DNA of 64,000 nt. It comes from Candidatus Aenigmatarchaeota archaeon. Its GTDB lineage: Archaea; Aenigmatarchaeota; Aenigmatarchaeia; QMZP01; QMZT01. Below, in pieces: positions 2 to 50,004 of this stretch. The stretch is from positions 64,001 through 128,000 of the forward strand of contig CAVSBQ010000002.1 in the NCBI GenBank assembly GCA_963726265.1. The letters run 5' to 3'. Below the pieces are notes generated by a model. The model was not told the origin of the DNA. It was given only the letters and a program-made list of their open reading frames with translations, and searched no databases. The stretch's first letter is position 1, and every line of letters starts with the position of its first letter. A program made the position numbers and the translations under genes.

Positions 2-5972
<5,971 letters not shown>

Positions 5973-6036
5973 ATCTTTTCACACCCGAACACCCCGGTAA
6001 TCACGTCTGCCGGTATATGCAAAGCAAGTGAAATTT

Positions 6037-6459
6037 ATGGCGATGGTTGGAATTTCGCCCCTGATATCCGTGATAATGCTCATAGCCTTTACTCTCGCCG
6101 TTTCAGGCATCCTATTCGGCTGGATTTCGCAGTTCACCTATGCAGAAAGGGAGGAGTTCCAGACGTGTTCGAAGGCCCAGATAAGCCTGCAGAAGGCCTA
6201 TTACAACCCGGAGACTGGCAACATCAACCTCGTCGTGCAGAACACGGGCAGGGTCGATTTGAAAGGTTTTACCGTCCTCATTTCAACTGACAAGAGCGCG
6301 GAGACCGACAGGAGCTCCCTGGAAAAGGAGATAAAGGAAGGCGGCATAGGGCTTTTGCAGGTCAAACGCAGCGACGCCATCAGGACCATCGTGGTCCAGG
6401 CGGTCGAATGCAAGAATGCGCAGGACATGGTAACGATATACGACGTGGAGGGTTTGTGA
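6037..6459 (+). CDS. Archaeal type IV pilin/archaellin-like protein (class III signal peptide)
   Basis: N-terminus G|ISPLISVIMLIAFTLAVSG followed by a small beta-rich domain with a VQNTG motif. Alternative GTG start at 6028 would supply the Lys before the cleavage site. Confidence 0.8.
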   Translation: MAMVGISPLISVIMLIAFTLAVSGILFGWISQFTYAEREEFQTCSKAQISLQKAYYNPETGNINLVVQNTGRVDLKGFTVLISTDKSAETDRSSLEKEIKEGGIGLLQVKRSDAIRTIVVQAVECKNAQDMVTIYDVEGL

Positions 6460-6460
6460 T

Positions 6461-9400
6461 ATGAAAGCGAGAACGGGTCTTCTGTTTGCGTCATGCATAC
6501 TCATAGTTATAGTTTTGGCGCTGTCCCTTTTTCCGACAAAAGCCGCTGCGGCCTACAGGTGCTCGACATGCCAGGACAGCCCGAGCGTGTTCACGCTAGG
6601 CAAGGTGCAACTGGGGACCAGCAACACGCTATCGCTGAGGGGCTATGACCTCTACGGCATCAAGGAGATATCGATAAAATGCGAAAGGGCGGACGAAACG
6701 CCTCCGACCGTCGGCGTGAGCGCCATGCCTGTGAACGCCCTGAACTGCCCCGCCTTCCTGAAAAAGAATGCCAAGGCATCAATAAGCTGCGCCGACAGCG
6801 GCTCAGGATGCGACATGGAGAGCAAGAGCATAATGCTTTGGACCGAAAATCCGCCGGCAGCATGTCCATCCGACCCGTCCGATTACGATATGTATTTCCC
6901 GGACTCGAGCTACGACATAACCGAGCACACGTATGTCTGCGGCGCGGCCACAGACAACGCGGGCAACCCCGGCTTCTCTCCAAAGCCAATCGAGTTCTGC
7001 GTGGATTCGGAGAACCCGGAAGCCTCCCAGATATGGTATGAAAACCTGGGAGGGACTTCCGTCGACATAGTATGGTTCCAGTACACGCTGAACGCGGACT
7101 TCGACCACTATGAGCTCCATTATTCCCAGCACGCGGATTTCACGCCCGGCCCGGAAACCCTGCTTGCCAAGGTCATGACGCAGAAGACTGCTAACACCTA
7201 CGGCGTGGGCAACCTGGAAAAGGAGACGTTCTATTGTTTCAAGATCATCACCTACGACAAGACCGGCCTTACTTCGTCATCGGGAGAGCTTTGCCTGGAC
7301 ACGCTCCAGTGCAACGCAGGCGAGACGACGCAATGCTTCACTGACGACTACGGCATAACCTCATACGGCGATGACGTCATCACGCAAGGGGTATGCGAGC
7401 CGGGCGAAGCGGAATGTTCCGCGGGCTACTGGGGCTTGTGCGAGAACCAGGTCGGACCGTTCGCCGAGACGTGCAACGGGAAGGACGACGACTGCGACGG
7501 CTACACAGACAACTACTGGACTGGCGAACCCGCGCTGCTTTTCCGCTCCTGCACTGCGCCGGGCATATGCGGCATGGGCTATTACGAATGCGCCGGCGGA
7601 AAATGGGGCGACGAAAAGACCGACTGCAGCAGCCTGAGCTATGCGACAACCGAAGTCTGCAACGGCCTCGACGACGACTGCGACGGGATAAAAGACAACG
7701 TCGATGGAGCCACGTCGGTCGCGGCGACGAAATGCGGCTGCTACGGAGGAAGGCCTGCCACCACGGAGACATGCAACGGCATTGATGATGACTGCAATGA
7801 CTGGAGCACGCCGCACGAAGGGGTAGACGACGTCTATGACCAGCAGACGTGCGCATGCTACAGGGCCGCGCACGCCGCGGGAACGCTGCAGGAAACTTGC
7901 AACATGATTGACGACGACTGCGACGGACTCGTGGACGAGACATGGATAGCGACACTCGGCCATGGCTGGCCGCTTTATTTTGCAGGCTGCGGCGGCGGAA
8001 GCGTCTGCGAAGGCGGGCACTGGGAATGCAACGCCGCTGGGAACGGGACGGTCTGTTCGACCGTCGGCGGCAGCGAAAACGCAGTCGAACAGGAAACGTG
8101 CGACCTCATGGACAACGACTGTGATGGAACGGTGGACGAGGGCTGCGCGTGCTCTGCCGGCGAGTGGAGGAACTGCGGCCTTAACAAGGGGATATGCCAG
8201 CCGGGAACGCAGGAATGCGAAAGCGGCTTCTGGGGCAACTGCAGGAATTATGTCGGCCCACAGCCTGAAACATGCAACTGGCTTGACGATGACTGCGACG
8301 GGATAATCGATAATGTTAACGGCGGGAATTCCACGCAGAACACGCAGTGTGGGTGTTATAACGGAAGCGACCCTGCGGCGGAAACCTGCAACAACATAGA
8401 TGACAACTGCGACGGGATAATGGACAATATTGACGGCGGTAATTCGGTCGCGGCGACGGGCTGCGCCTGCTACGCCAACAGCACGTTCAGAGGCGTCAAA
8501 GGTCAGGAAATCTGCAACGGCCTCGACGACGACTGTGACGGAGCGGTGGACGAGACCTGGCCCGGCATAGGCACGGCATGCGGCACGGGAATATGCTCAG
8601 GCGGCGTCGTGAGCTGCGCCCTGGGCGGCAACGACACCGTGTGCTCGACCATGAGCTCCGCGGGCCTAGGCAACACGAGCGACGTGCGCCAGCCCGAGAT
8701 ATGCAATGGCCTCGACGATGATTGTGACGGGATAGTGGACAATGTTAACGGCGCCGCATCTGTCGGAGAAACGCAGTGCGGCTGCTATAATAATACTTAT
8801 GCAAAGGGAGCGAAGGCGGAGACGTGCAACCACATAGACGACGACTGTGATGGAGCGGTAGACAATAACCTGACATGCCTGTGTTATGAAGGCCAGAGCA
8901 AGCCCTGCGGCTCCAACGTCGGCGAGTGCAGCCTCGGCCGCGCCGCGTGTGATGGCGGCGTGTGGGGCGCGTGCAAGGGCGGCAAGAGCCCGGCAAAGGA
9001 GGTATGCAACAGGGATGACGACGACTGCGACGGGGTGATAAACAACGTCGGCGGCAAATATTCCATAGAGGAAACGCAGTGCGGCTGCTACAACGGCAGG
9101 AAGCCTTCCGTCGAGAAATGCAACGGTATAGATGACGACTGCGACGGCAAGGTGGACGACGACGTCGAATGCAGGTGTGAAACTGGCCAGGAGATGCAGT
9201 GCGGCTCCAACGTCGGCGTATGCTCACCAGGCACCAAGAAATGCATCGGCGGGAAATGGGGCGAATGCACCGGTGGCACGCTGCCTTCTGCGGAAACCTG
9301 TAACGGCGACGACGACGACTGCAACGGGGTCGTCGACGACGTGAACAGAGGAAATTCGATAGGCTCGTCCGCATGCGCGTGCTACAACAGGTTCGCCATG

Positions 9401-11743
9401 CCGGGCACGCAGGAGGAGATATGCAACGGGATTGACGACGATTGCGACGGAGCGATTGACGAAGGCTGCGGCAGCCAGCCGGGCCACTGCCAGAACGGCG
9501 TCATGGACGGGGATGAGAAAGGGATTGACTGCGGCGGCTCGTGCAAACTCTGCTCTGCGCCCGTCAGCGTGAGCACGTGGATGCTCGTTTTCGCGGTGAT
9601 CGCCGGCGTTATAGCCGTGTTCGGCATATTCCTCAGCTCGTTCTGGAAAGGCGAGAAGAAGTCGCTCTTCGAGAGGACGGGCGGTAGGCGCAGGAGCGCT
9701 TTCCTGTTTTCGGCATTCTTGGCCGCCTCGCTGTTCATGGTTGCATTATGCGTTTACCCGCTCACGGCAGAGGCGCAGGGCACGCTGCCCACCTTTGAGA
9801 AAATATGGAGCTGCGCCAACGGCGGCCTTTCGGGCTGCGCGGAGAACTGCGGAGGCACGAAATACGAGAAGAATATCGACCTGAGCTTCAGCGCGCCCGA
9901 GGCGGGCTATTACACCTGCACGATAACCGCAACCGCGAACCTTTTCAATTATGCGAACGGGGTCGAAGAAGTCGCGGAGTACAGCGACGTTTACCTGAAC
10001 GGCGCAAAGGTCGGGACAACCGAGGACGCATGGTGCCCGCCCAGCCCCGAATGCAAGAGCACCGTCCCGGACACGCCATCGACGGGCATTCTTAAAACTC
10101 CCACATATTTCCCCGGAGGCTACGGCCAGAGCGTCAGCAACTTCTGCAAGAAGGGCAGCGCCACCTTCAGCATATGGAGCATCCCTTCGTCCGAGCTGCA
10201 GGATGTATACAACCGTGAGCTCAACAACCAGGAAAGATCGTATAACATTTTCGGCCTGGGCAACAGCCAGAACAGGAATTCCATGATGGCAAGGTTCCAG
10301 TATTACATAACGAACTGGAAAACAAAGGCAGGCAGATACATCGTCTGCCTCGGCGGAGGGACGTGCGCGGCCTGCAATTGCTGCAACTGCTTCGAGAACC
10401 TAGAAGTCCAGGATACATGGTGCGGCGACGCCATAGACAGGCCCAACTGCCGCCTGCTGGTGGACGGAGGCAGCGGCGGCCTATCAGCCGACCCTTACGG
10501 CACTCTCATACGCACGGCGCCTTACACATACAAGGTCACATGGGATTCCGATGCGGGAGCCGTATGCCTGTCCAGGATATCACCGGCCTGCCCCAAAACC
10601 GGATCGCTGAGCGGGCTGTGCAAGCAAAGATGCATTGAAGCAAACGGCATTCCCGCATTCGCCTTCAACAACTACTGCGTGGGCAGCAGATGTTCAACCA
10701 CCTACACCAGCGCCTCAACAGGCACCACCACAGGCAGCATAAGCCTGAATTCCATAACCTGCGATGCCGTGGTAACGGAAGCGCCTGAAAGCTGCCCGGG
10801 CTACAGCTCTTCCTCCGGCTCATCATCAACTTCGCAGCTTGCCTCGCCCGATGAAGCCAGCGGGGATTTCAGCGTCGTGGTCATGCCCGACACGCAGACT
10901 CTCGCCGAGAGCAAGTTCTGCAGCCAGACCTCGTGGATAAAGGACAACAAGAAAGCCCTCAACATAAAGTTCGTGGTCCATCTTGGCGACCTGGTGGAGG
11001 AGCCGTTCTCGGCAGCGCGGTGGCAATGGGCTGACAAATGCATGGACACCCTTGATAACGTTGTCCCTTACCTCGTCATTCCGGGCAACCACGATTACGA
11101 AAACTACTGCAGGGACGAGGTGAAAAGCACAATCATGTATAACCAGTATTTCCCTTATACCAGGTTCCAGGATTACAGCTGGTACGGCGGCCATTACCCT
11201 GCGAACGGCAACCAGAACAGCTACGGCCTTTTCGCCAGCGGCGGCAAGAAGTTCCTGGTCATCGGCCTTGAGCTGTGCCCCAGCGACGCGGTGCTGAGCT
11301 GGGCCGACGGCATAATCAACAAATACCCGGACAGGGAGGTCATACTCTTCACCCACGCCTATCTCAACACGACCAACAAGAGACTTGCCAGCATCGAGGG
11401 CGCCACGGGCATCGCAATAAAATGCTGCGCCGACGGCAGGGGCAACAGCGGAGTGGACATGTGGAACGAGCTGGTGACGAAGCACCCGAACATAATCATT
11501 GTCGCCTCGGGCCACGTCCCCGGTACGGGCAAGAGGACGGATTACGTGAGCAGCGGCTCGGATACGACCAAGCCCATCCACCAGACGCTGCAGGATTACC
11601 AGGACAAGGCGAATGCCATGCTCAGGATTTACACCTTCAGCCCTTCGAATAAAAAAATCACGGTTAAGACGTATTCTCCCTACCAGAAAGTATATGACGC
11701 CGCGTCGTCGAACAGCTTCTCCCTTCCGTGGCCAGGTATCTGA
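6461..11743 (+). CDS. Giant surface protein: signal peptide, FN3-like domain, ~14 Cys/Asp repeats, two internal hydrophobic helices, C-terminal calcineurin-like metallophosphoesterase
   Basis: Repeats ETCNGxDDDCDG; FN3-like segment ending GNLEKETFYCFKIITYD; phosphoesterase motifs PDTQ, HLGDLV, GNHD, FTH, SGH. Confidence 0.88.
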   Translation: MKARTGLLFASCILIVIVLALSLFPTKAAAAYRCSTCQDSPSVFTLGKVQLGTSNTLSLRGYDLYGIKEISIKCERADETPPTVGVSAMPVNALNCPAFLKKNAKASISCADSGSGCDMESKSIMLWTENPPAACPSDPSDYDMYFPDSSYDITEHTYVCGAATDNAGNPGFSPKPIEFCVDSENPEASQIWYENLGGTSVDIVWFQYTLNADFDHYELHYSQHADFTPGPETLLAKVMTQKTANTYGVGNLEKETFYCFKIITYDKTGLTSSSGELCLDTLQCNAGETTQCFTDDYGITSYGDDVITQGVCEPGEAECSAGYWGLCENQVGPFAETCNGKDDDCDGYTDNYWTGEPALLFRSCTAPGICGMGYYECAGGKWGDEKTDCSSLSYATTEVCNGLDDDCDGIKDNVDGATSVAATKCGCYGGRPATTETCNGIDDDCNDWSTPHEGVDDVYDQQTCACYRAAHAAGTLQETCNMIDDDCDGLVDETWIATLGHGWPLYFAGCGGGSVCEGGHWECNAAGNGTVCSTVGGSENAVEQETCDLMDNDCDGTVDEGCACSAGEWRNCGLNKGICQPGTQECESGFWGNCRNYVGPQPETCNWLDDDCDGIIDNVNGGNSTQNTQCGCYNGSDPAAETCNNIDDNCDGIMDNIDGGNSVAATGCACYANSTFRGVKGQEICNGLDDDCDGAVDETWPGIGTACGTGICSGGVVSCALGGNDTVCSTMSSAGLGNTSDVRQPEICNGLDDDCDGIVDNVNGAASVGETQCGCYNNTYAKGAKAETCNHIDDDCDGAVDNNLTCLCYEGQSKPCGSNVGECSLGRAACDGGVWGACKGGKSPAKEVCNRDDDDCDGVINNVGGKYSIEETQCGCYNGRKPSVEKCNGIDDDCDGKVDDDVECRCETGQEMQCGSNVGVCSPGTKKCIGGKWGECTGGTLPSAETCNGDDDDCNGVVDDVNRGNSIGSSACACYNRFAMPGTQEEICNGIDDDCDGAIDEGCGSQPGHCQNGVMDGDEKGIDCGGSCKLCSAPVSVSTWMLVFAVIAGVIAVFGIFLSSFWKGEKKSLFERTGGRRRSAFLFSAFLAASLFMVALCVYPLTAEAQGTLPTFEKIWSCANGGLSGCAENCGGTKYEKNIDLSFSAPEAGYYTCTITATANLFNYANGVEEVAEYSDVYLNGAKVGTTEDAWCPPSPECKSTVPDTPSTGILKTPTYFPGGYGQSVSNFCKKGSATFSIWSIPSSELQDVYNRELNNQERSYNIFGLGNSQNRNSMMARFQYYITNWKTKAGRYIVCLGGGTCAACNCCNCFENLEVQDTWCGDAIDRPNCRLLVDGGSGGLSADPYGTLIRTAPYTYKVTWDSDAGAVCLSRISPACPKTGSLSGLCKQRCIEANGIPAFAFNNYCVGSRCSTTYTSASTGTTTGSISLNSITCDAVVTEAPESCPGYSSSSGSSSTSQLASPDEASGDFSVVVMPDTQTLAESKFCSQTSWIKDNKKALNIKFVVHLGDLVEEPFSAARWQWADKCMDTLDNVVPYLVIPGNHDYENYCRDEVKSTIMYNQYFPYTRFQDYSWYGGHYPANGNQNSYGLFASGGKKFLVIGLELCPSDAVLSWADGIINKYPDREVILFTHAYLNTTNKRLASIEGATGIAIKCCADGRGNSGVDMWNELVTKHPNIIIVASGHVPGTGKRTDYVSSGSDTTKPIHQTLQDYQDKANAMLRIYTFSPSNKKITVKTYSPYQKVYDAASSNSFSLPWPGI

Positions 11744-43901: not shown

Positions 43902-44462
43902 ATGCCCCAACCTTCTCAGATAAAGACGCGCGTGGAAAAGGCGACGAGGGAAGCAGTCGAACTCGAGAGGTCCTCGGACGACTTCTCCATAAGGGTCGCG
44001 GTCGATTTCTCCAAAAAACCCGTGCCGCTTAGTTCTGGTCTAAGCTTCGTCGACAAAATCCTGAGCGGCATATCCACCTTCAGCGTTGCTGTCGAGATGC
44101 CGCAACAGGCCGCGGACGAGGAACGGCTGATCAAGAATGCTGGCTTCGCCTTCGGCGAGGCGGTGAGGAAGCTTTACGATAAAAGGAAGGCCAGGGAAAC
44201 GGCGGCCCTGATAAAGTCCGAAGGCAAGGCAATGTGCATGCTCGCCATAGGCGCGAAGCGCCAGCCGGGCGAGGCGAACCTGCAGATAATAGGAACGCCC
44301 GAACGTGGTTTCGAGCCCGACAGGTTCTTCATCTTCTTCGACGGCTTCGCGCAGGGCATGGAAGCGGAGCTCAACCTGACCGTGAACCTGGCCGGAGGAA
44401 AAACCCAGCTAGGCATGATAACCAGAACGTTCTCGGAAGCGCTGAAGCGGATTCTGGGCTAG
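43902..44462 (+). CDS. Degenerate imidazoleglycerol-phosphate dehydratase (HisB)-fold protein lacking the metal-binding histidines
   Basis: [11 protein letters not shown] (cf. TGIGFLDHML), AGFAFGEAV (cf. GIxLGxAL), FFDGFAQ and FSEAL. The protein contains no His at all. Confidence 0.6.
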
Positions 44463-44656
44463 GCGCGGCTTCTCACAAAATTGCCGGCCGACCTGTCATG
44501 CGTCTTTTCCGCATCTTTCGTGAACAAGCAGCCCGGAACTTCGCCGGCCTCGCGGTGATGCGCTATGCATTCGCAGCACATCCCCTTGCGCGAGCAGCCG
44601 GGGTAAGAACAGGTGCAGCGCTTCAGGTTCTCCTTGCGGTTCGCGCATTCCTTCAT
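44459..44656 (-). CDS. DUF6485-like small Cys-rich protein
   Basis: [33 protein letters not shown]. Confidence 0.8.
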
Positions 44657-44664
44657 GCAAAACC

Positions 44665-44868
44665 TCACTGGTCCATGCCCGCATCGGTGTGCTGTCTCTT
44701 TTTTCTGAACAAATTACCGAGCTTCTTGTAGAATGGTTCCTTTTTCCCTAAAAGCGCATCCCTTGTATCAAAATACTCAAAAAAACCAGATATCCCGCCA
44801 ATTCTGATGTAATCCCAAAGGCTGCAGCCCATGATGCTGTCGCCACGATTTATCTTTCCGTATCCCAT
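44665..44868 (-). CDS. Small hypothetical protein
   Basis: Tightly packed between co-oriented genes; GGAGA SD-like sequence upstream. Confidence 0.45.
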
Positions 44869-44870
44869 GT

Positions 44871-45335
44871 TTATCTCCTTTCGTTTCTTCCGGAGAATTT
44901 TTTAATCCGGCCTCCGGCTGTTTTCTTCTTTTCTGCCTTCTTTTCGGTCTCTATGCCTAGCTGGCCTTCGATTTCCCTGAGGAATTTCTTGTCAGGGAAG
45001 CGGATGTCAAGGCTCCTGTGGCCGCGAAGGTTCGCATACCGCTCCTTGTCAAGCGTTATGAAAAAGTCCCTCTTCGCTTTCATGTGGTTCACGAGTAGGA
45101 CGAGGTCGCCGTGCTCCGCGAGGTTCAGGTCATGCTGCGGTCTCGCGAAGACCATCTGCCTGAGCGTGTCATAAATCTTCTCCTCGGTTCTGCTGAGCGT
45201 GCCAAGGTCCCTGTTCAGGTTCTGCGCGTGGAAAAGCCGGAGCTTGCCTTCTTCCTCGAGTTTCTTGAGCTGGTTTATTACCGGATGCCTGTCGTAGAAT
45301 ATCATGGCCGAATGGTCCATGGTTATGCTTACCAT
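44871..45335 (-). CDS. PIN-fold-like protein
   Basis: N-terminal strand ITMDHSA, then GDLVLL..DFFITLD; GGTGA SD upstream. Confidence 0.5.
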   Translation of the reverse strand: MVSITMDHSAMIFYDRHPVINQLKKLEEEGKLRLFHAQNLNRDLGTLSRTEEKIYDTLRQMVFARPQHDLNLAEHGDLVLLVNHMKAKRDFFITLDKERYANLRGHRSLDIRFPDKKFLREIEGQLGIETEKKAEKKKTAGGRIKKFSGRNERR

Positions 45336-45471
45336 ATTATCACCGTCTTATCACCGTCTGTAAAATTCTTGGAAAGAAGATTTTTAACCTTATTTTAGCC
45401 TCTGTTCTGGTATTAGCCCGTTTTCCCGCGTTTTCCGCGTTTTTTTAAGCCGGCTGGGCAAAATTATAATC

Positions 45472-45678
45472 ATGGCAAATGCAAGCGCCTGGGTAGTGAT
45501 TCTGGTCGTGGTGGGGGCTATAGTGCTGGCTGTCGGCGTAATAGGCGGCTACCTGGCCTCGCTTTCGTCTCCCGAATACTTCCCCGTGTGGATGTTCGTA
45601 GCATTTATCGGGATAGTACTCGCCCTGGCCGGGATCGCGATGGGCATGGGCAGTAAGCCTGCTAGCAGCAACCACTAA
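45472..45678 (+). CDS. Small two-TM membrane protein
   Basis: Two hydrophobic helices; TTTTAA box upstream. Confidence 0.6.
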   Translation: MANASAWVVILVVVGAIVLAVGVIGGYLASLSSPEYFPVWMFVAFIGIVLALAGIAMGMGSKPASSNH

Positions 45679-45806
45679 ATTACATTTCTCTTTTGCATGG
45701 TTTGCCTAGTCTTTTTCCTGAAAGCTTAAAATCGATATACGTCGCCTCATTTTTATCGCTCACTTCTGCCGCTTCCCCTCTCTCACCAACGGGTCAAATT
45801 CAAAAC

Positions 45807-45902
45807 AACCCTCACTTTTGATCCAAAAATTATTTTTCATAAAATATATAATTTAGTATATATTTTAAATTATATCTATCATTAAAAATATTTTAAATAA
45901 AA
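45807..45902 (+). repeat. Left arm of an imperfect ~100-bp AT-rich inverted repeat
   Basis: AACCCTCACTTTT .. TTTAGTATATATTTTAAATTATAT .. AAAAATATTTTAAATAAA; matches the reverse complement of 47200..47298. Confidence 0.7.
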
Positions 45903-45956
45903 TATATTATTTTATATATAATTAAGTATAGATAAATAATGTTCCATTTTCCAGGA

Positions 45957-45989
45957 GTTTAAACATCCGTTTAAACGGCCGTTTAAACG
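45957..45989. repeat. Three GTTTAAAC palindromes at a 12-bp period
   Basis: GTTTAAAC-atcc-GTTTAAAC-ggcc-GTTTAAAC; 45968..45989 is a perfect 22-bp palindrome. Confidence 0.8.
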
Positions 45990-46019
45990 TCATCAAAAAC
46001 AGAGGCGATGCTATCTGGT

Positions 46020-46556
46020 TTATACATCTTTAAAGGCCTTTTCAATAAGCTTTCTTTTCTGTTCTTTTCCCATCTGTGTATATATTTTCGTTGTTTCCAG
46101 CCGTTCATGGCCCAGCATATCCTGAACGACGTCTATTCCAACCCCCATGTTAACCAGGTGGGTCGCATAGCTATGTCTAAGCGTATGGGGATGCACCTCT
46201 TCAGGTGCCCGGATGCCCGAGATCCTGGCATACTTCTTAATTATGTTCCTTATTTGGCGGTCTGAAACCGGGAATAATGTCGATGTTGTCATGTTTTTGA
46301 TATAGTCACGCAATTCCTCTGCGAATCTGTCATTTGGTATGAAAACGAGCCTGTCTTTCGAACCCTTCCCCTGAACCACCTTTATCATTTTGTTTATGAT
46401 ATCCACGTCATCTTTTTTAAGGTTCATGGCCTCTGAATTTCTAAGACCCAGATGGAAAAGGCACTTAAGAAGCATGGAATCTCTGGGGTTCTTTGCAGCC
46501 CCGACCATGGCCCTGAATTCTTCCAAGGTCAGAAATCTTGGCAATTTGCGCGCCAT
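46020..46556 (-). CDS. Tyrosine recombinase, catalytic domain only (178 aa)
   Basis: GLRNSE (R), GKGSKDR (K), HTLRHSYATH (HxxR), LGH and TTKIYT (Y) are all intact. It begins at RKLPRFLT, with no core-binding domain. Confidence 0.93.
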   Translation of the reverse strand: MARKLPRFLTLEEFRAMVGAAKNPRDSMLLKCLFHLGLRNSEAMNLKKDDVDIINKMIKVVQGKGSKDRLVFIPNDRFAEELRDYIKNMTTSTLFPVSDRQIRNIIKKYARISGIRAPEEVHPHTLRHSYATHLVNMGVGIDVVQDMLGHERLETTKIYTQMGKEQKRKLIEKAFKDV

Positions 46557-46609
46557 TTTATCAGTTTAGTATTTGTTTTGACCATTATATAAAGCTCAGT
46601 GTGTCGAAT

Positions 46610-46633
46610 TTCCGAAAATAAGTATTTTCGGAA
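46610..46633. promoter_or_regulatory. Perfect 11-2-11 inverted repeat upstream of the recombinase promoter
   Basis: TTCCGAAAATA-AG-TATTTTCGGAA; a TATA-like TTTATATAA (minus strand) lies at ~46585..46593. Confidence 0.65.
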
Positions 46634-46742
46634 GTAGGGGTTCTGAAGCTAAACGTGTTTTCCCATGGGTTTTTCGGCCGGATAGGCCGTCCCACCAGGT
46701 AAAACATGGTTAGAAAAACAAATGTCTGGAATAAGACTAAAA

Positions 46743-47105
46743 TCACGCAGGTTTTTTCTCGGCTTTCTTTTCCTTCTTGACAGGCTGCTTGGCCTGCTTC
46801 CTGCACTTGTCCTCGACCTGGATAAGTTTCTTCTTGACGGCCTCCATGTTGTGCGCTATGTCCCAGCCGTCGTCGGTCAGCTTGACCCCCTTTATGCGCC
46901 CCTTTTTGTCAAAGACTACCAGGCCCATGACCTGCAGGACGTCGAGGATCTTTATCGTGTGCGAATACGTGCAGTCCGCTTCCTTTGAAAGGATGGTCGC
47001 GTAAACAGGCCCTTTCGCCGTCTTCAGCGCGAGCAGTATCCTAGCCGGTTTCTCTCTTAAAAACAAGTCTTCCAATATCGGTTTATCAACCGAGAGTTCT
47101 GCCAT
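46743..47105 (-). CDS. Archaeal winged-helix (MarR-like) DNA-binding protein
   Basis: EKPARILLAL..YATILSKEADCTYSHTIKIL..GLVVFDKKGRIKGVKLT; Lys-rich tail. Confidence 0.85.
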   Translation of the reverse strand: MAELSVDKPILEDLFLREKPARILLALKTAKGPVYATILSKEADCTYSHTIKILDVLQVMGLVVFDKKGRIKGVKLTDDGWDIAHNMEAVKKKLIQVEDKCRKQAKQPVKKEKKAEKKPA

Positions 47106-47199
47106 GTTATATTTTATAACAATTAGAAATATAAACGTTATCTATGTATTAAAACCGCTATTTTTTCCCAAATAGTTTATAATATATATTTTTTATTAA

Positions 47200-47298
47200 A
47201 TTTATTTTAATATATTTTTTTAAAAATATAATTTATAAAATATATACTAAAAAATATAGTTTGGACAGTTTTCCAGATTTTCACAAAAAGTGAGGGTT
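47200..47298 (-). repeat. Right arm of the AT-rich inverted repeat
   Basis: ATATAATTTATAAAATATATACTAAA .. AAAAGTGAGGGTT. Confidence 0.7.
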
Positions 47299-47426
47299 AA
47301 AAGCGGAAGTGAGGCCTCGAAGCGAGGGGGTGCGGGAGGCGGCCGGAGAGGAAAACGCAAAAACCGACATGTATCGGGCATGTTTTTGAAAAAAAGCCTT
47401 ACCGAAAACAATTGGCAGTAAACGGC

Positions 47427-49775
47427 TCAGATTTCAGCTATCTTGGTCACGCCGTCGATTTCCTTGTCGCGCTCGAGACGATAGGTCGAGCCCGTGATGT
47501 AATCCGACAGCCGCTCCTCGTGCGTTATCAGGAAGACCTGGTCGATGATGTTTTCCATCTTGTCCCTGAGAACTGAGCCGAAATGCTCAATGGCGTTCCT
47601 GTCCAGGTTGTGCGTCGGCTCATCCAGAATCAGCCAGCGCAGGTTCGGCGTGAACGCGAGCGAGAACGCGATCCTCAGCGCGAGCGACGCGAGCGAGCGC
47701 TCGCCACCCGACACGGCGTCCGCGTTAAGCCATCCCTTCGCCGCCTTGAGCTGAAGAACATAATCCTTGTCGACGAGCATGCGTATCTCGGAGAAGTCTC
47801 CGTATGGATAAAGCTCCTCCCATATCTGGTTCATTATGTAATTCACGGTCTTCAGGAACTCGTCCCTCAGCTGGTCCTGCGTGCTTCGAAGGACAGAGAT
47901 GAAAACGTCCATGGATACCGTGAGCTTCTCGTATGCCGCAACGTCCTTCTTGTAGCGCAGGAACGTGTTCCTCTGCACCTCCAGGTCGCGCAGCGCGGCG
48001 GTTTTCTCCTTCACCATCTCCTGCAGGGCGTCGAGTTTCGCCTCCAGCGACCTTGAGCTTCCGACCGCCTCCTGGAGCTCGGCTCTCAGCGCCTTTATGT
48101 CCTTGCCCTTCGTTTTCTTCGCAAGCGCCTTCCTGTGCTTCTCGAGGCTTTTCAGCTGCTTCGCCAGCTCGCCTCTCTCCTTATTCAGCGCTTCGAATTC
48201 CTCCTTCTCCCTGAGCAGGCTTTCATCCCTCGCCATCTTCAGGCGCATTTTTTCGAGCAGCTGCCTGGCGCGCTTTTCCTCCGCCTGCCTTTTCTGTATG
48301 TCAGCGGCGATGCTACCGACTTCCTTCATGAGCATGCCGATTTTGTCCTCGCTGTCCTTTATCTTGTCCCTGAGCGGGTCAAGCTCCTTCAGCTCATTCC
48401 TCAGCTCCGAGTATTGCCCGATGCCATTCTTGAAACCCTCGATTTGCGCCGCCTCTTTCGCTTCGTTTTCCTTCGCCTCCCTGAGCCGCAGGTCTATTTC
48501 TCCCATGTGCTTCAGCCTGTGCTCCAGCAGCTCTTTCTTGCGTTCGCCCGTCAGATGCGACTCGCAAACGGGGCATTTGTCTCCCGCGCCTTTCAGCTCG
48601 GACAGGCCTTTCTCCACAGCCTCCCTCTCCGCGGCGAGCGCGTATAATTTTTTGCGGAGCGCGTCCAGGCTCTCCAGCATCTCGCCCAGCTTCTTGTCCG
48701 GGTTTTCGCCGAGCGCGGCCTCGAGCTTCTTCAAGCGCAGCTCGTTTTCCTTGCCCGCGGAGAGGCGGAGTTTCGCGTCCTTTATCTGCTCGCGGAAAAA
48801 ATGAATCCTCCCGTTCTTGGTCGCCACGCCATCGCGCAGGATGCGTATCTCGCTCTCGAAGCCCTCGAGCCTCGCCTCCAGCCTGTAGGCTTCGCTCTTC
48901 GCCTGCTTCAGCGACTCCGGCGTCGTCTTCGCGGTTCCCCTGACCTTCAGCTTCCTGCTCTCGAGCTGCCTCTGCATCTCCGCGATGCGCGAGCTGAGCG
49001 AATCGCTTTTCCTGACTATGTCGTTAAGCATCCTGTCGTCGGCCTCGTATGTCACGACCTTTTCCGACAATCGCTTCCTTGCACGCTCGATGGCCGAGGC
49101 TTCGGAATTCAGCTTTTCGGCTTCGTTTTTTTTCCCAGCCAGCGTTTTTTCGAGATCGCTTGTTTTCTCCTCGAACCTGCGCCCCTTCATGTCCTCGACG
49201 ACCCTGAGCATCTCCTTCCTCCGCTCGAAAAGCCTGTTGCGTATCGAGACCGCCTTCTCCCTCGCCGTCTCGTAGCGGTCGAGCTTCAGCATGGCGTCTA
49301 TCTGCTGCATGCGCTTTCCCTTGGGAATCTGGAGGAAATAGTCCAGCGCGTTCTGCTCCGAGTAAACCGCGCGGGAAAACATGTCGTAATCCATCTGGAG
49401 GACGCGTTCGACTTCGCGGCTCACGCCCTGCGGGTTCACCTCGAGCAGCTTGCCGTTCTCGCGGATTTCAGCGGTCGTCGTCCCGCTGTCCCTCTTGACC
49501 ACCCTCTTCACGGAGTATTTTTTCCCGTTCGCGGCGAACTCGACCTCCACCGAGGCGGAGTCTTTGGAGCTCGGCTTGGACATGATGAGGTCGTCAAGCG
49601 AGAGCTTCCTGGAGCCGAGCGCGGAGAACGTGCCGAAAAGCGCGAAAGCGATTGCTTGCATCACGCTCGTCTTTCCGGAGCCCATGATGCCGAAAAGCGC
49701 ATTCACGCCTTTGGAGAATTCGAGCTCCGAGTTGAGATGCGATTTCCAGTTGACGAGCCTGACGCGCGTGATCAT
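47427..49775 (-). CDS. rad50: Rad50/SbcC-type SMC ATPase with Zn hook
   Basis: Walker A GIMGSGKTS, Q-loop YSEQ, coiled coils around CPVC, signature VSGGE, Walker B LILDEPT, ITH. Confidence 0.88.
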   Translation of the reverse strand: MITRVRLVNWKSHLNSELEFSKGVNALFGIMGSGKTSVMQAIAFALFGTFSALGSRKLSLDDLIMSKPSSKDSASVEVEFAANGKKYSVKRVVKRDSGTTTAEIRENGKLLEVNPQGVSREVERVLQMDYDMFSRAVYSEQNALDYFLQIPKGKRMQQIDAMLKLDRYETAREKAVSIRNRLFERRKEMLRVVEDMKGRRFEEKTSDLEKTLAGKKNEAEKLNSEASAIERARKRLSEKVVTYEADDRMLNDIVRKSDSLSSRIAEMQRQLESRKLKVRGTAKTTPESLKQAKSEAYRLEARLEGFESEIRILRDGVATKNGRIHFFREQIKDAKLRLSAGKENELRLKKLEAALGENPDKKLGEMLESLDALRKKLYALAAEREAVEKGLSELKGAGDKCPVCESHLTGERKKELLEHRLKHMGEIDLRLREAKENEAKEAAQIEGFKNGIGQYSELRNELKELDPLRDKIKDSEDKIGMLMKEVGSIAADIQKRQAEEKRARQLLEKMRLKMARDESLLREKEEFEALNKERGELAKQLKSLEKHRKALAKKTKGKDIKALRAELQEAVGSSRSLEAKLDALQEMVKEKTAALRDLEVQRNTFLRYKKDVAAYEKLTVSMDVFISVLRSTQDQLRDEFLKTVNYIMNQIWEELYPYGDFSEIRMLVDKDYVLQLKAAKGWLNADAVSGGERSLASLALRIAFSLAFTPNLRWLILDEPTHNLDRNAIEHFGSVLRDKMENIIDQVFLITHEERLSDYITGSTYRLERDKEIDGVTKIAEI

Positions 49776-50004
49776 ATCCAACCCTCTACCCAATCCCCAA
49801 TGTCGTGGTACGAAACAATACTGTAGAAAGATTGATTCGGGAATTTTTAAGTTTGGAGGGAGTTTTTTTCCGGTCCGCACGTCCTATATATTATAATGCA
49901 TAATTTTTATTAAAAATATATAAAAAAGTATATAAAGGCCCTGCGGAAAATAATATGCAAACACGATAGACAAAAAGAATCGCAATGAAAACAGGGCGTT
50001 GCTT

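Follow-up and report, generated by a model that had tools for sequence, protein, structure and literature searches.

The question raised by this locus is what a tyrosine recombinase without its core-binding domain and a small winged-helix (wHTH) protein might do together between two mirrored, extremely AT-rich arms. The initial annotation of the 64,000-nucleotide stretch analyzed here (the window), which belongs to a 1.13 Mb aenigmatarchaeal genome (G000) assembled in four contigs and 88% complete by marker genes, had offered three answers: an invertible cassette, a non-canonical replication origin or a chromosome-resolution locus. The third option fits best of the three, but the probable core site is a dyad located between the two genes and not, as had been proposed, the AT-rich arms.

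Recombinase, dyad, wHTH gene, iterons and arms are all contained within 1.7 kb. In agreement with the initial annotation, the AT-rich blocks enclose exactly two open reading frames, both on the minus strand, which encode the recombinase (46020-46556, 178 aa) and the wHTH protein (46743-47105, 120 aa); the 186 nt upstream of the recombinase frame are intergenic. The GC content of the blocks is 0.19 and 0.17 in 200-nt windows, versus 0.53 for the whole window. Thirty stretches of the main contig have a GC content of at most 0.22 per 150 nt, and the two arms are the lowest of these (minima 0.12 and 0.10); no other stretch of the genome is as AT-rich. Rfam gave zero matches in region 44000-49000 at E values up to 1, and PADLOC matched neither the recombinase nor the wHTH protein.

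The left limit of the conserved module is formed by an outermost box (AAAATCGATATAC..GCCTCATTTTT, 45728-45754), which has the same orientation as the outermost box at the right limit (AAAAACCGACATGTATCGGGCATGTTTTT, 47359-47387). The left iteron array (45745-45819, minus strand) consists of a main box, CCCTCACTTTT at 45809-45819, and weaker CTCAC-type boxes at 45745, 45758 and 45780, and includes an element specific for the recombinase side (GGGTCAAATTCA, 45791-45802, plus strand; TTTGAC on the other strand). The left extreme AT-rich block (45820-45945) contains the TA-rich dyad TAAAATATATA-ATTTAG-TATATATTTTA (45840-45867). Three GTTTAAAC palindromes with a spacing of 12 nt (45957-45988) are located just 3' of the recombinase stop codon; pairs with this spacing occur at seven other places on the contig. 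The right extreme AT-rich block (47106-47285) harbors the wHTH promoter at its inner end (TAACGTTTATATTTCT, 47125-47140, minus strand) and a TA-rich core near its outer end (47236-47262), and is followed by the right iteron array (47286-47327, plus strand), composed of AAAAGTGAGGGTT (47286-47298), AAGTGAGG at 47307 and AAGCGAGG at 47320, the first two being spaced 19 nt.

All elements of the inverted arms listed in the initial annotation were found where it had placed them: AACCCTCACTTTT is located at 45807-45819, opposite AAAAGTGAGGGTT on the right, and TTTAGTATATATTTTA, at 45852-45867, returns as its reverse complement at 47237-47252. Its view that the blocks are imperfect inverted copies held as well, the likeness of the arms being beyond that of shuffled AT-rich sequence. 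An inverted local alignment of the arms scored 65, versus 41 +/- 6 for 2000 bin-shuffles (three of which reached 65), and five further AT-rich blocks of this genome gave scores of 24-32. Genome-wide, the main box and the TA-rich core were each found just once on either strand, at this locus only. The extra AAGYGAGG-like boxes reported outside the arms are present, but the left ones (45745 and 45758) are one-mismatch versions and not exact copies. The window contains 11 matches to the AAGYGAGG motif, four of them in the arms, versus an expectation of 5.4; a count of 11 was reached in 2 of 100 shuffles.

Two other roles considered for the arms were discarded. AAAGTGAG was rejected as a motif marking start sites in general: of its 19 copies on the main contig, only the two in the arms are preceded by AT-rich DNA. 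Likewise, outward structured small RNAs starting at the box were rejected, as no common fold emerged from 12 left-arm sequences, all of which gave weak structures (-9 to -23 kcal/mol). Unstructured transcripts may yet arise from the arms.

The residues R39, K64, H124, R127, H150 and Y159 of the recombinase are invariant among 32 sequences and form a complete active site. PF00589 is its only Pfam match, an N-terminal domain is absent, and the open frame of 181 aa extends just three codons upstream of the start; these observations bear out the original description of an intact R-K-HxxR-H-Y set without an N-terminal core-binding domain. The best NCBIfam match is XerA_Arch (E 4.5e-45, profile positions 91-259 of 263), and the best solved relative is XerA of Pyrococcus abyssi (4a8e, residues 97-276, E 1.3e-40), to which Foldseek assigns a TM score of 0.84. 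Repressors with a recombinase fold (SroF, YopR, MrpR) appear low in the fold list, at ranks 42-50. Judged from its sequence, the protein is the catalytic domain of XerA without the core-binding domain, and it is predicted to be active. Its score of 154.3 bits lies below the XerA equivalog cut-off of 220, which argues against a Xer/dif reading. A full-length XerA was not found in G000. Seventeen of 41 relatives have a full-length XerA-like frame, eight of these above the curated cut-off, and the wHTH gene is present as well in all but two of the 17; the module is therefore not simply the sole Xer system, which also counts against a Xer/dif reading. None of the papers listed in our literature search dealt with archaeal tyrosine recombinases without a core-binding domain.

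If the recombinase is active, where would it act? Between the two genes, 51 nt upstream of the recombinase start codon, lies the 28-bp dyad ATTTCCGAAAA-TAAGTA-TTTTCGGAAGT (46608-46635), an 11-6-11 arrangement whose arms are complementary at 10 of 11 positions. This corresponds to the form of dif, two inverted arms of ~11 bp around a centre of 6-8 bp. The dyad pattern has a single match in the 1.13 Mb of all four contigs, as expected of one site per chromosome (the assembly being 88% complete). It abuts the recombinase promoter, a TATA-like element (GCTTTATATAATGG, 46582-46595, minus strand) recognized by eye from comparison with the TATA hexamers of the genome, and the dyad could be an operator only, an option that counts against a Xer/dif reading and to which the repressors with a recombinase fold mentioned above are relevant.

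The distribution of the dyad among relatives follows that of the recombinase. In the order set it is present in 13 of the 16 loci with an ortholog of the G000-type recombinase. In the genome_contigs set, 16 loci match the strict pattern and one further locus (L120) has a 9-of-10 variant, so that 17 of 20 loci of this recombinase class have the dyad and none of the 60 others does. Among 15 aligned sequences, 95.2% of the dyad arm cells are complementary, versus 20-57% when the partner is slid. Six cells are changed on both sides in a mirrored manner, a number reached by none of 500 shuffles, and the spacer is 6 nt in all cases and variable in sequence. Other recombinase classes in the same slot come with other dyads having 6- to 7-bp spacers; one such family, ACGTTACAGAA-TGTATA-TTCTGTAACGT, occupies the same place in four loci. 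Between G000 and its nearest relative, nucleotide identity is 84% for the wHTH gene and right arm and 74% for the left flank and left arm, the inner 68 nt of the left AT block being identical, and there is no shared nucleotide identity over the recombinase and dyad. Taken together, these comparisons point to the 28-bp dyad, and not the arms, as the likeliest recombination site.

The initial annotation had favored inversion among its options, and the arms have features that would suit it. The recombinase could flip the gene pair at the TA-rich cores, or excise it at the outermost direct boxes. The arms are mirrored, their conserved core TTTAGTATATATTTTA belongs, in the left arm of G000, to an 11-6-11 dyad without mismatches, the recombinase is of FimB/FimE size and is matched by the invertase models PRK09870 and PRK09871 (E 5e-14), and the second extreme AT block is found mostly where the recombinase is: at the loci displayed, in seven of seven complete loci with a recombinase versus one of 11 without. 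For excision, the outermost boxes are directly oriented and are kept at both module ends in one family (f1). Set against this, the orientation of the cassette, as read from an outer element made up of the box and TTTGAC, is fixed: this element was detected in 22 loci, in all 22 on the recombinase side and in none on the side of the wHTH gene. An invertible switch is therefore not supported. Moreover, the outer halves of the arms differ by side across genera (ATAATTTAG vs ATTCTTTAG), and the presumed spacers are also unlike between the arms. Recombinase-side and wHTH-side arms have similar values of a generic best-dyad score (8.8 vs 8.5 of 10; in the paired comparison 3 were better, 14 equal and 5 worse), so symmetry alone does not allow the TA-rich core to be called a recombinase site, and this core is unchanged where the recombinase class differs. 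The outermost direct boxes of G000 have no identical common core (direct score 13, shuffle mean 12.5). Finally, both neighboring genes converge on the module, so inversion would switch no outside gene. An invertible or excisable cassette is thus very unlikely.

A synteny break on the right-hand side of the module in G000 was considered as a possible inversion at the module edge. Loss of ~4 kb including a herA-type neighbor fits better, because same-genus relatives retain the order module, herA, rad50.

Inverted arms and direct outer boxes around a recombinase gene would also be compatible with a small integrated mobile element, or the remnant of one, bounded by terminal inverted repeats; in addition, the recombinase is matched by PHROGs integrase families, all of them generic, and the GC content of the locus is below that of its surroundings. 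This explanation is barely credible given that the module is present in one copy per genome, without a second intact copy in G000, that the same flanks recur across a family, that collinearity with a same-genus relative extends for more than 110 kb, and that identical att cores are lacking.

A chromosomal role raises the question of where on the chromosome the module lies. It is located at 110.0-111.4 kb, 519 kb or ~165 degrees away from the single orc1/cdc6 gene, and this terminus-side position is known from one genome, G000. Canonical ORB and mini-ORB boxes are present beside orc1, at positions 629,006-629,130 of contig C2; none occur at this locus, where AT-richness is the only feature of an origin that was found. 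The comparison of whole-genome skew with the position of orc1, which had been suggested initially, gave a peak at orc1 and none at the module: the composite oligonucleotide skew has a single sharp peak at 629.65 kb. The GC skew of G000 is borderline (range 1.48 vs a permutation 95% point of 1.44). The composite curve is lowest and flat from ~25 to 125 kb and rises steadily from ~105-125 kb, which places the module at the edge of the flat minimum. Among the 11 3- and 4-mers with the strongest skew, seven have one extreme no farther than 25 kb from orc1; the other extremes of these seven scatter (34.7, 84.7, 104.7, 114.7, 839.7, 959.7 and 1089.7 kb), and only two of the seven fall within 15 kb of the module. 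The gene-strand skew of G000 was not significant. In G041, a variant without arms whose scaffold contains 8,500 N, the GC skew was not significant and the oligonucleotide skew has its extremes at about 30 and 395 kb, away from both orc1 and the module, so that this genome lends no support to a terminus-side position.

These data do not support the non-canonical origin proposed in the initial annotation. In a broader version of that idea, the locus would be an Orc1-independent second origin or a centromere-like partition site, at which the wHTH protein would nucleate on the iterons and the AT blocks would be unwound or wrapped. The extreme AT-richness of the arms, the iteron-like direct boxes with a spacing of 19-20 nt, the inverted boxes that in one family lie on either side of the AT block itself, the presence of AspA chains among the best fold matches of the wHTH protein and the location of the module nearly opposite orc1 would all be in line with this. 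Such a function is nevertheless highly improbable. Besides the ORB boxes and the skew peak at orc1, the Pfam matches of the window included no ParA or SegA-type gene, the sequence profile match to AspA is weak (E 0.059), and relatives differ in how far the module or wHTH gene is from orc1, with distances between 26 and 519 kb. In two distant relatives the wHTH gene is as close to orc1 as 26-29 kb, which also counts against a Xer/dif reading.

The wHTH protein is MarR-like and of the AF1382/AspA winged-helix type. Foldseek placed AF1382 first and AspA next, and the sequence profile also matches AF1382 (E 5.3e-07); fold and sequence relation both hold, and binding of the protein to the boxes is predicted. 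The structural model (pLDDT 73) has a longer C-terminal helix than these relatives and a lysine-rich tail. Of the 91 genomes from the order, 65 have the gene (21 of the 23 of high quality), always as a single copy except for an extra fragment in G012.

Related genomes had been suggested initially as the place to look for the gene pair and its motif, and the architecture does recur there: across one order of Aenigmatarchaeota, the same two genes lie between such arms, and of the 30 loci in the order set, 26 have the recombinase linked to the wHTH gene. Yet the recombinase is less widely and less strongly conserved than the wHTH gene and than the CTCTCACTTTT boxes that border the extreme AT block on its outer side. 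Twelve of 47 box-bearing loci have the wHTH gene, the upstream AT block and the box, and no recombinase within 2.5 kb on either strand, which speaks against a Xer/dif reading. The initial annotation had suggested that the wHTH protein might provide specificity to the recombinase; it may direct this enzyme, devoid of a core-binding domain, to DNA, but it is thus also kept where no recombinase is close by.

It could therefore be argued that the locus is a unit of regulation or chromatin structure built around the wHTH protein, a conserved nucleoid or transcription factor whose CTCTCACTTTT operators and very strong AT-rich promoter regions bracket its own operon, the short recombinases and their dyads being exchangeable passengers with no housekeeping role. 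Besides the recombinase-less loci, in which boxes are found at the starts of neighboring genes, as expected of operators, this explanation is favored by the more distant relatives, which have neither box nor recombinase, by the far better conservation of the wHTH protein (59-87% identity vs 51-60% for the recombinase), by recombinase classes that differ within one genus while the frame is kept, and by the many places in the arms that fit the TATA hexamers of the genome (TTTAAA, TTTATA). It is less easily reconciled with the retention of every catalytic residue, with the linkage between the two genes, with a second AT block that accompanies the recombinase, and with dyads that have the 11-6-11 form of recombinase sites, a form not specific for operators. 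We consider a unit of this kind unlikely.

The reading we prefer, and give about an even chance of being right, is that the locus is a vertically inherited, single-copy resolution module of the xerA/dif type, in which wHTH-bound arms would have an accessory or insulating role. The recombinase would bind the dyad as a dimer and carry out recombination between two dyads, either within a chromosome dimer or between sister chromosomes, resolving dimers in the manner of XerA/dif, XerS/difSL and XerH/difH; with one core site per chromosome, nothing would invert. The wHTH protein would bind the CTCTCACTTTT iterons of both arms. What the arms would then do is the weakest step: they might mediate autoregulation, bend or loop the DNA, or replace control of the FtsK type, the latter being proposed because archaea, to our knowledge, have no FtsK. 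A Xer function by itself gives no reason for the retention of two mirrored arms whose GC content is the lowest in the genome, which counts against it.

PepA and ArgR act together with accessory sequences at the plasmid sites cer and psi to provide resolution selectivity. By analogy, the wHTH protein, iterons and AT-rich arms might constitute a chromosome-organizing device that licenses a recombinase without core-binding domain. The wHTH-coated arms would position the single dif-like site and confer selectivity without FtsK, and the frame would be a landing pad for recombinase-plus-dif cassettes exchanged between lineages. We regard this elaboration as possible, if doubtful. If it were true, a housekeeping system would here be evolving in a new way, by the swapping of whole recombinase-plus-site cassettes within a frame that stays fixed. 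The locus would also show whether a tyrosine recombinase works without its core-binding domain. If on the other hand the dyad were just an operator and the arms just promoters, this would be an ordinary, oddly built operon. The regulation of archaeal Xer recombination must differ from that in bacteria, as stated in the accessible part of a review (Badel et al. 2021, PMC8371274). With its minimal parts, i.e. a 178-aa recombinase, a 28-bp site, one small DNA-binding protein, iterons and arms, the locus is a minimal natural system for the question of how Xer is controlled without FtsK.

The wHTH protein has the same fold as, and a similar size to, AF1382 of Archaeoglobus fulgidus (PDB 2qvo/3ov8) and AspA (PDB 4rs8/5k5q), and differs from both in the C-terminal helix and tail described above. 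We know of no function for AF1382. AspA is the centromere-binding protein of pNOB8 and part of a ParA/ParB partition cassette, which was not seen at this locus. FimB and FimE, which act on fimS of E. coli, are tyrosine recombinases of ~200 aa without a full core-binding domain that rely on DNA-bending helper proteins. They share with the present locus a short recombinase and inverted repeats; however, no orientation polymorphism is seen here, the G000 recombinase is nearer to XerA than to the invertase models, and its arms consist of ~190 nt of AT-rich DNA, whereas the inverted repeats of fimS are 9 bp.

Among the matches listed in our literature search, no paper linked XerA or a dif site to DPANN or Aenigmatarchaeota. 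A xerA/dif module is present in some archaea, the archaeal dif having 11-bp inverted arms and a 6-bp centre (accessible text of Cortez et al. 2010, PMC2958812, and Serre et al. 2013, PMC3646895). The systems of P. abyssi and Thermoplasma acidophilum resemble the present one in the catalytic domain, the active-site residues, the 11-6-11 site and the occurrence of that site once per genome; in G000 it is located far from oriC, apparently on the terminus side. The core-binding domain of P. abyssi XerA comprises residues 1-103, and this whole domain is missing from the G000 recombinase. Also unlike XerA/dif, the G000 gene is fixed beside a wHTH gene and bracketed by iteron-bearing AT-rich arms, and several recombinase-plus-site versions occupy the same slot among relatives. 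In streptococci and lactococci (XerS/difSL) and in Helicobacter and Campylobacter (XerH/difH), xerS and xerH immediately adjoin their own sites, as is the case here (PMC5357621, accessible text). These recombinases are two-domain proteins of 354-362 aa that depend on FtsK, in contrast to the 178 aa of the G000 recombinase, and the centre of difSL is 11 bp versus 6 bp in the G000 dyad (same excerpt of PMC5357621). The arms of difSL and difH both end in GAAAA beside the centre, and the left arm of difSL, as printed in that text (PMC5357621), reads TTTCCGAAAA, the same 10 letters being present in an arm of the G000 dyad.

The module at ~45.7-47.4 kb of the window (C2:64001-128000) lies in an archaeal assembly of 1.13 Mb in four contigs. 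In agreement with the initial annotation, two AT-rich blocks (17-19% GC, against 53% for the window) bracket exactly two genes, both on the minus strand, and every motif it listed was found at its position. The GC minima of these arms, 0.12 and 0.10, are the lowest of the 30 stretches of the main contig, C2, that have a GC content ≤0.22 per 150 nt. The sole other site in the genome near this AT content is a 1.8-kb island at C2:926,000-927,800 (minimum GC 0.127 per 150 nt). The arms had also been described as imperfect inverted copies, and this similarity goes beyond chance: their inverted local alignment scored 65, as compared with 41 ± 6 for bin-shuffles, which reached 65 in 3 of 2000 cases. 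Five AT-rich blocks from elsewhere in the genome, aligned likewise, scored 24-32. Genome-wide, there is just one occurrence per strand of the main box (C[CT]CTCACTTTT), and likewise of the TA-rich core (TTTAGTATATATTTT).

Twenty-five arms, taken from 15 loci, were aligned and read from the outside inwards; both sides have an identical order of elements. The outermost box (AAAAATCGATAT..AGAGCC) comes first, then a stretch rich in C that contains boxes of CTCAC type, and next the main box ((A)ACTCTCACTTTTT); the TA-rich core lies 25-35 nt inward of the main box, and ~120-150 nt in which only composition is conserved complete the arm. A search of relatives for the gene pair and its motifs, as had been advised, showed that both extreme AT blocks recur around the pair in genomes of 26-46% GC. 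Conservation of the TA-rich core is limited to one family, and the outer halves of the cores are side-specific across genera. A box followed by TTTGAC marks the outer recombinase-side arm in all 22 loci where it was detected, and the wHTH side in none. This fixed placement, together with the side-specific core halves, speaks against the invertible cassette proposed initially. Excision would be the corresponding outcome for direct repeats, and the outermost boxes of the two arms are indeed in direct, not inverted, orientation; in the source genome, however, these boxes share no identical core. We consider an invertible or excisable cassette rather unlikely.

The wHTH gene (46743-47105, minus strand) encodes 120 aa that match no Pfam family above threshold; its closest homologs come from sources named Candidatus Aenigmarchaeota or Aenigmatarchaeota. 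Its structural model (pLDDT 73) is of the winged-helix type; the C-terminal helix is long (78-105), and the tail is rich in lysine. The gene adjoins a recombinase gene in 17 of 19 fetched loci and, at 59-87% identity against 51-60% for the recombinase, is thus the better conserved of the two. Across the order it was found in 65 of 91 genomes (21 of the 23 of high quality), in one copy per genome with the exception of one extra fragment. Most loci have an AT block upstream of the gene with a box at the outer edge of the block. The box is conserved order-wide, as is the invariant recognition helix CTYSHTIKIL, and the wHTH protein is a putative binder of the boxes.

A second set of 80 loci from genome contigs included 76 scorable for upstream DNA. 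An AT window (100 nt, ≤20% GC) was present in 64 of these and the box in 47; one or two short recombinase genes followed downstream on the same strand in 35, and two genes in 6. Since this set overlaps the order set, both being drawn from the same species-genome collection, and relatives are not independent, locus counts describe a pattern and are not statistical tests. Of the 47 loci with the box, 12 had no recombinase on either strand within 2.5 kb; the arm on the wHTH side belongs with the wHTH gene. Among displayed loci, a second extreme AT block lies past the last recombinase gene in 7 of 7 complete recombinase loci versus 1 of 11 without recombinase; an eighth recombinase locus ends too early to be scored. 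Some recombinase-less loci have an inverted box straight after the wHTH gene, or boxes at the starts of neighbouring genes. In two of them, L131 (~2812, ~3152) and L142 (~2863, ~3141), the box AAAGTGAG is followed 8-10 nt on by AACGGAC immediately before neighbouring genes, an arrangement that would look like a small wHTH regulon. The main rival explanation is that the wHTH protein and the arms form the functional unit, the recombinases being passengers or merely autoregulated genes; we regard this as a minority possibility.

The recombinase gene (46020-46556, minus strand) encodes 178 aa comprising only a Phage_integrase catalytic domain (PF00589, E 1.4e-32). Its top NCBIfam model is archaeal XerA, matched at positions 91-259 of 263; the score, 154 bits, is below the cut-off of 220. 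A profile built from 32 homologs retrieved Pyrococcus abyssi XerA (4a8e, residues 97-276, E 1.3e-40), then Thermoplasma acidophilum XerA and Escherichia coli XerD, and an AlphaFold model (pLDDT 85) superposed best on 4a8e (TM 0.84). Residues R39, K64, H124, R127, H150 and Y159 are invariant, so that the R-K-HxxR-H-Y active site is intact as annotated. The absence of an N-terminal core-binding domain was borne out as well: because the profile match starts at 91 and the reading frame has just three open codons 5′ of the start, the protein is a XerA catalytic domain that lacks the N-terminal domain. When 41 relatives were searched at the protein level, 16 genomes, belonging to three families, yielded orthologs (51-60% identity); a fourth family yielded a variant form. 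In one family (L020 682-2055 of genome G027, L021 and L022), the ortholog has an N-terminal extension of ~290 aa including an acidic linker; the wHTH gene is ~1 kb off and convergent, extreme AT-rich arms are absent, and a bona fide XerA is present too. Close to a contig end, at C1:13788-14570, an open frame of 426 aa includes a tyrosine-recombinase domain (32% identity to the short recombinase); it possibly encodes an integrase that belongs to an integrated element.

Within the 186-nt intergenic spacer lies a dif-like 28-bp dyad (46608-46635) that reads ACTTCCGAAAA|TACTTA|TTTTCGGAAAT along the recombinase gene and is unique in the genome. The dyad stops 51 nt short of the recombinase start codon, and a TATA-like element follows just downstream of it. 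The dyad was found in 13 of 16 order-set loci with an ortholog of this recombinase. In the genome-contig set, 16 loci have the strict form and one more a 9-of-10 variant; in the recombinase class that scores ~300 bits on our profile, this amounts to 17 of 20 loci, versus 0 of 60 others. An alignment of 15 dyads shows almost no variation in the arms and no conservation of the flanks; the spacer is constant in length (6 nt) and variable in sequence. Dyad arm cells are complementary in 95.2% of cases, as compared with 20-57% when the partner is slid, and two arm positions are changed on both sides (6 cells), a level of mirrored substitution reached by 0 of 500 shuffles. Another recombinase class has the dyad ACGTTACAGAA|TGTATA|TTCTGTAACGT at the same place (4 loci), and a third form has a 7-bp spacer; thus, each class travels with its own site. 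Comparison with the nearest relative gave 84% nucleotide identity for the wHTH gene and right arm (46641-47313) and 74% for the left flank and left arm (45543-46056), the inner 68 nt of this arm being identical. No shared nucleotide identity was found for the recombinase gene and dyad (46057-46640), where two recombinases of classes other than this one are present in the relative. On these alignments, recombinase and dyad are an exchangeable cassette.

We favor, at about even confidence, an xerA/dif-type resolution module, in which the minimal recombinase would act on the single dyad beside its gene, and the arms with bound wHTH protein would be accessory, regulatory or insulating elements. 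Such a module would explain why the orientation is fixed, why site and recombinase are linked, and why conservation is of the housekeeping type. Chromosome resolution, one option of the initial annotation, is hence the most likely reading, with the candidate site moved from the AT-rich arms to the dyad between the genes. Of 41 relatives, 17 have a full-length XerA-like frame, which exceeds the curated cut-off in eight; four of these eight belong to the family with the armless module and the 290-aa extension. None was found in the source genome or in four other genomes of its genus (completeness 84-91%). As 15 of the 17 also carry the wHTH gene, the module is not simply a XerA replacement.

Flanks are conserved within families: on the right a HerA-type gene in one family and a DUF373 gene in another, on the left two small genes. 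One contig of a same-genus relative is collinear with the source genome over >110 kb, up to the module. Such conservation makes a mobile element highly improbable. On the right flank of the source genome, ~4 kb including the herA-type gene are lost. In relatives (L025 2201-3355, L026) this gene (DUF87 plus HAS barrel) begins just outside the right arm and rad50 lies ~4 kb beyond; here (47427-49880) rad50 abuts the module, and the nearest HerA-like sequence, at position 341 kb, is just 33% identical. A contig of a same-genus relative runs collinear first with C1, in reversed orientation, before it continues along C2, beginning at the first bases of C2; therefore, C1 probably adjoins the start of C2.

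The single orc1/cdc6 copy was located at C2:627.8 kb. In the spacer upstream of it (C2:629,006-629,130; L003 2733-2862), mini-ORBs (TTTCCCATGGAACTTT, TTTCATATGGAACTTT) and an ORB-like box (ATCTCCAGTGGAAATTAGGGT) surround ~60 AT-rich nt, and this is the probable canonical oriC. The GC skew that was to be consulted and the gene-strand skew are weak. Of 152 words analyzed for oligonucleotide skew, however, 11 had z ≥4, and 7 of the 11 have an extreme ≤25 kb from orc1. At 629.65 kb, where the composite curve peaks sharply, the sign of the most skewed 3- and 4-mers changes. The initial proposal of a replication origin at the module thus found no support, and we deem a second origin or a centromere there quite improbable. 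In two distant relatives, wHTH genes without box or recombinase lie 26-29 kb from orc1. The composite curve has a flat minimum at ~25-125 kb and rises steadily from ~105-125 kb; the module, at 110.0-111.4 kb, is ~165 degrees from orc1. This position, in one genome only, fits a terminus-side site; the other extremes of the 7 words scatter (2 of 7 ≤15 kb from the module), and in G041, a gapped single scaffold from the armless-module family, neither orc1 nor module is at a skew extreme. The two mirrored ~190-nt arms, the genome's most AT-rich DNA, are accounted for by none of the five readings.

Other features were noted in the same genome. The palindrome GTTTAAAC, possibly a transcription factor site, has three copies at 45957-45988 and recurs on C2 as pairs at seven places, spaced 12 nt and once 28 nt (43915/43927, 51862/51874, 625120/625132, 668745/668757, 928410/928422, 1004194/1004222, 1084315/1084327); ahead of start codons, TTAAAC and GTTTAA show peaks at -40 and -54. 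Genome-wide (793 long ORFs, all on C2), hexamers of TATA type (TTTAAA, ATTTAA, TTTATA) are most frequent 27-30 nt ahead of start codons, the position to be expected with mostly leaderless mRNAs; another AT-rich element has its maximum at -8 to -10. The region 459-11743 holds two giant ORFs, of 1837 and 1760 aa, which probably encode surface proteins: both have many MopE-type Cu-binding motifs, and one also has a laminin-G domain, the other a metallophosphatase domain.

A survey at the level of listings returned nothing on such a module in DPANN archaea. Best fold matches of the wHTH protein were AF1382 of Archaeoglobus fulgidus, the pNOB8 centromere binder AspA and MarR proteins; AF1382 resembles it also by sequence profile (E 5.3e-07, the sole significant match), whereas the likeness to AspA is one of fold (profile E 0.059). 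Simple tyrosine recombinases usually combine core-binding and catalytic domains, and a 'Cand' group holds separate Xer-related proteins of candidate phyla, according to excerpts of one classification (PMC8138268). The N-terminal domain of P. abyssi XerA spans residues 1-103 in the published excerpt; the recombinase described here differs in being without it. Thermococcales dif sites are placed 122-142 degrees from oriC in a similar excerpt. Excerpts of PMC5357621 describe an xerA/dif module in some archaea, archaeal dif-like sites as a 6-bp centre between two inverted repeats of 11 bp each, and xerS and xerH as adjoining their sites in single modules. The left arm of difSL given there, TTTCCGAAAA, has the same ten letters as an arm of the dyad.
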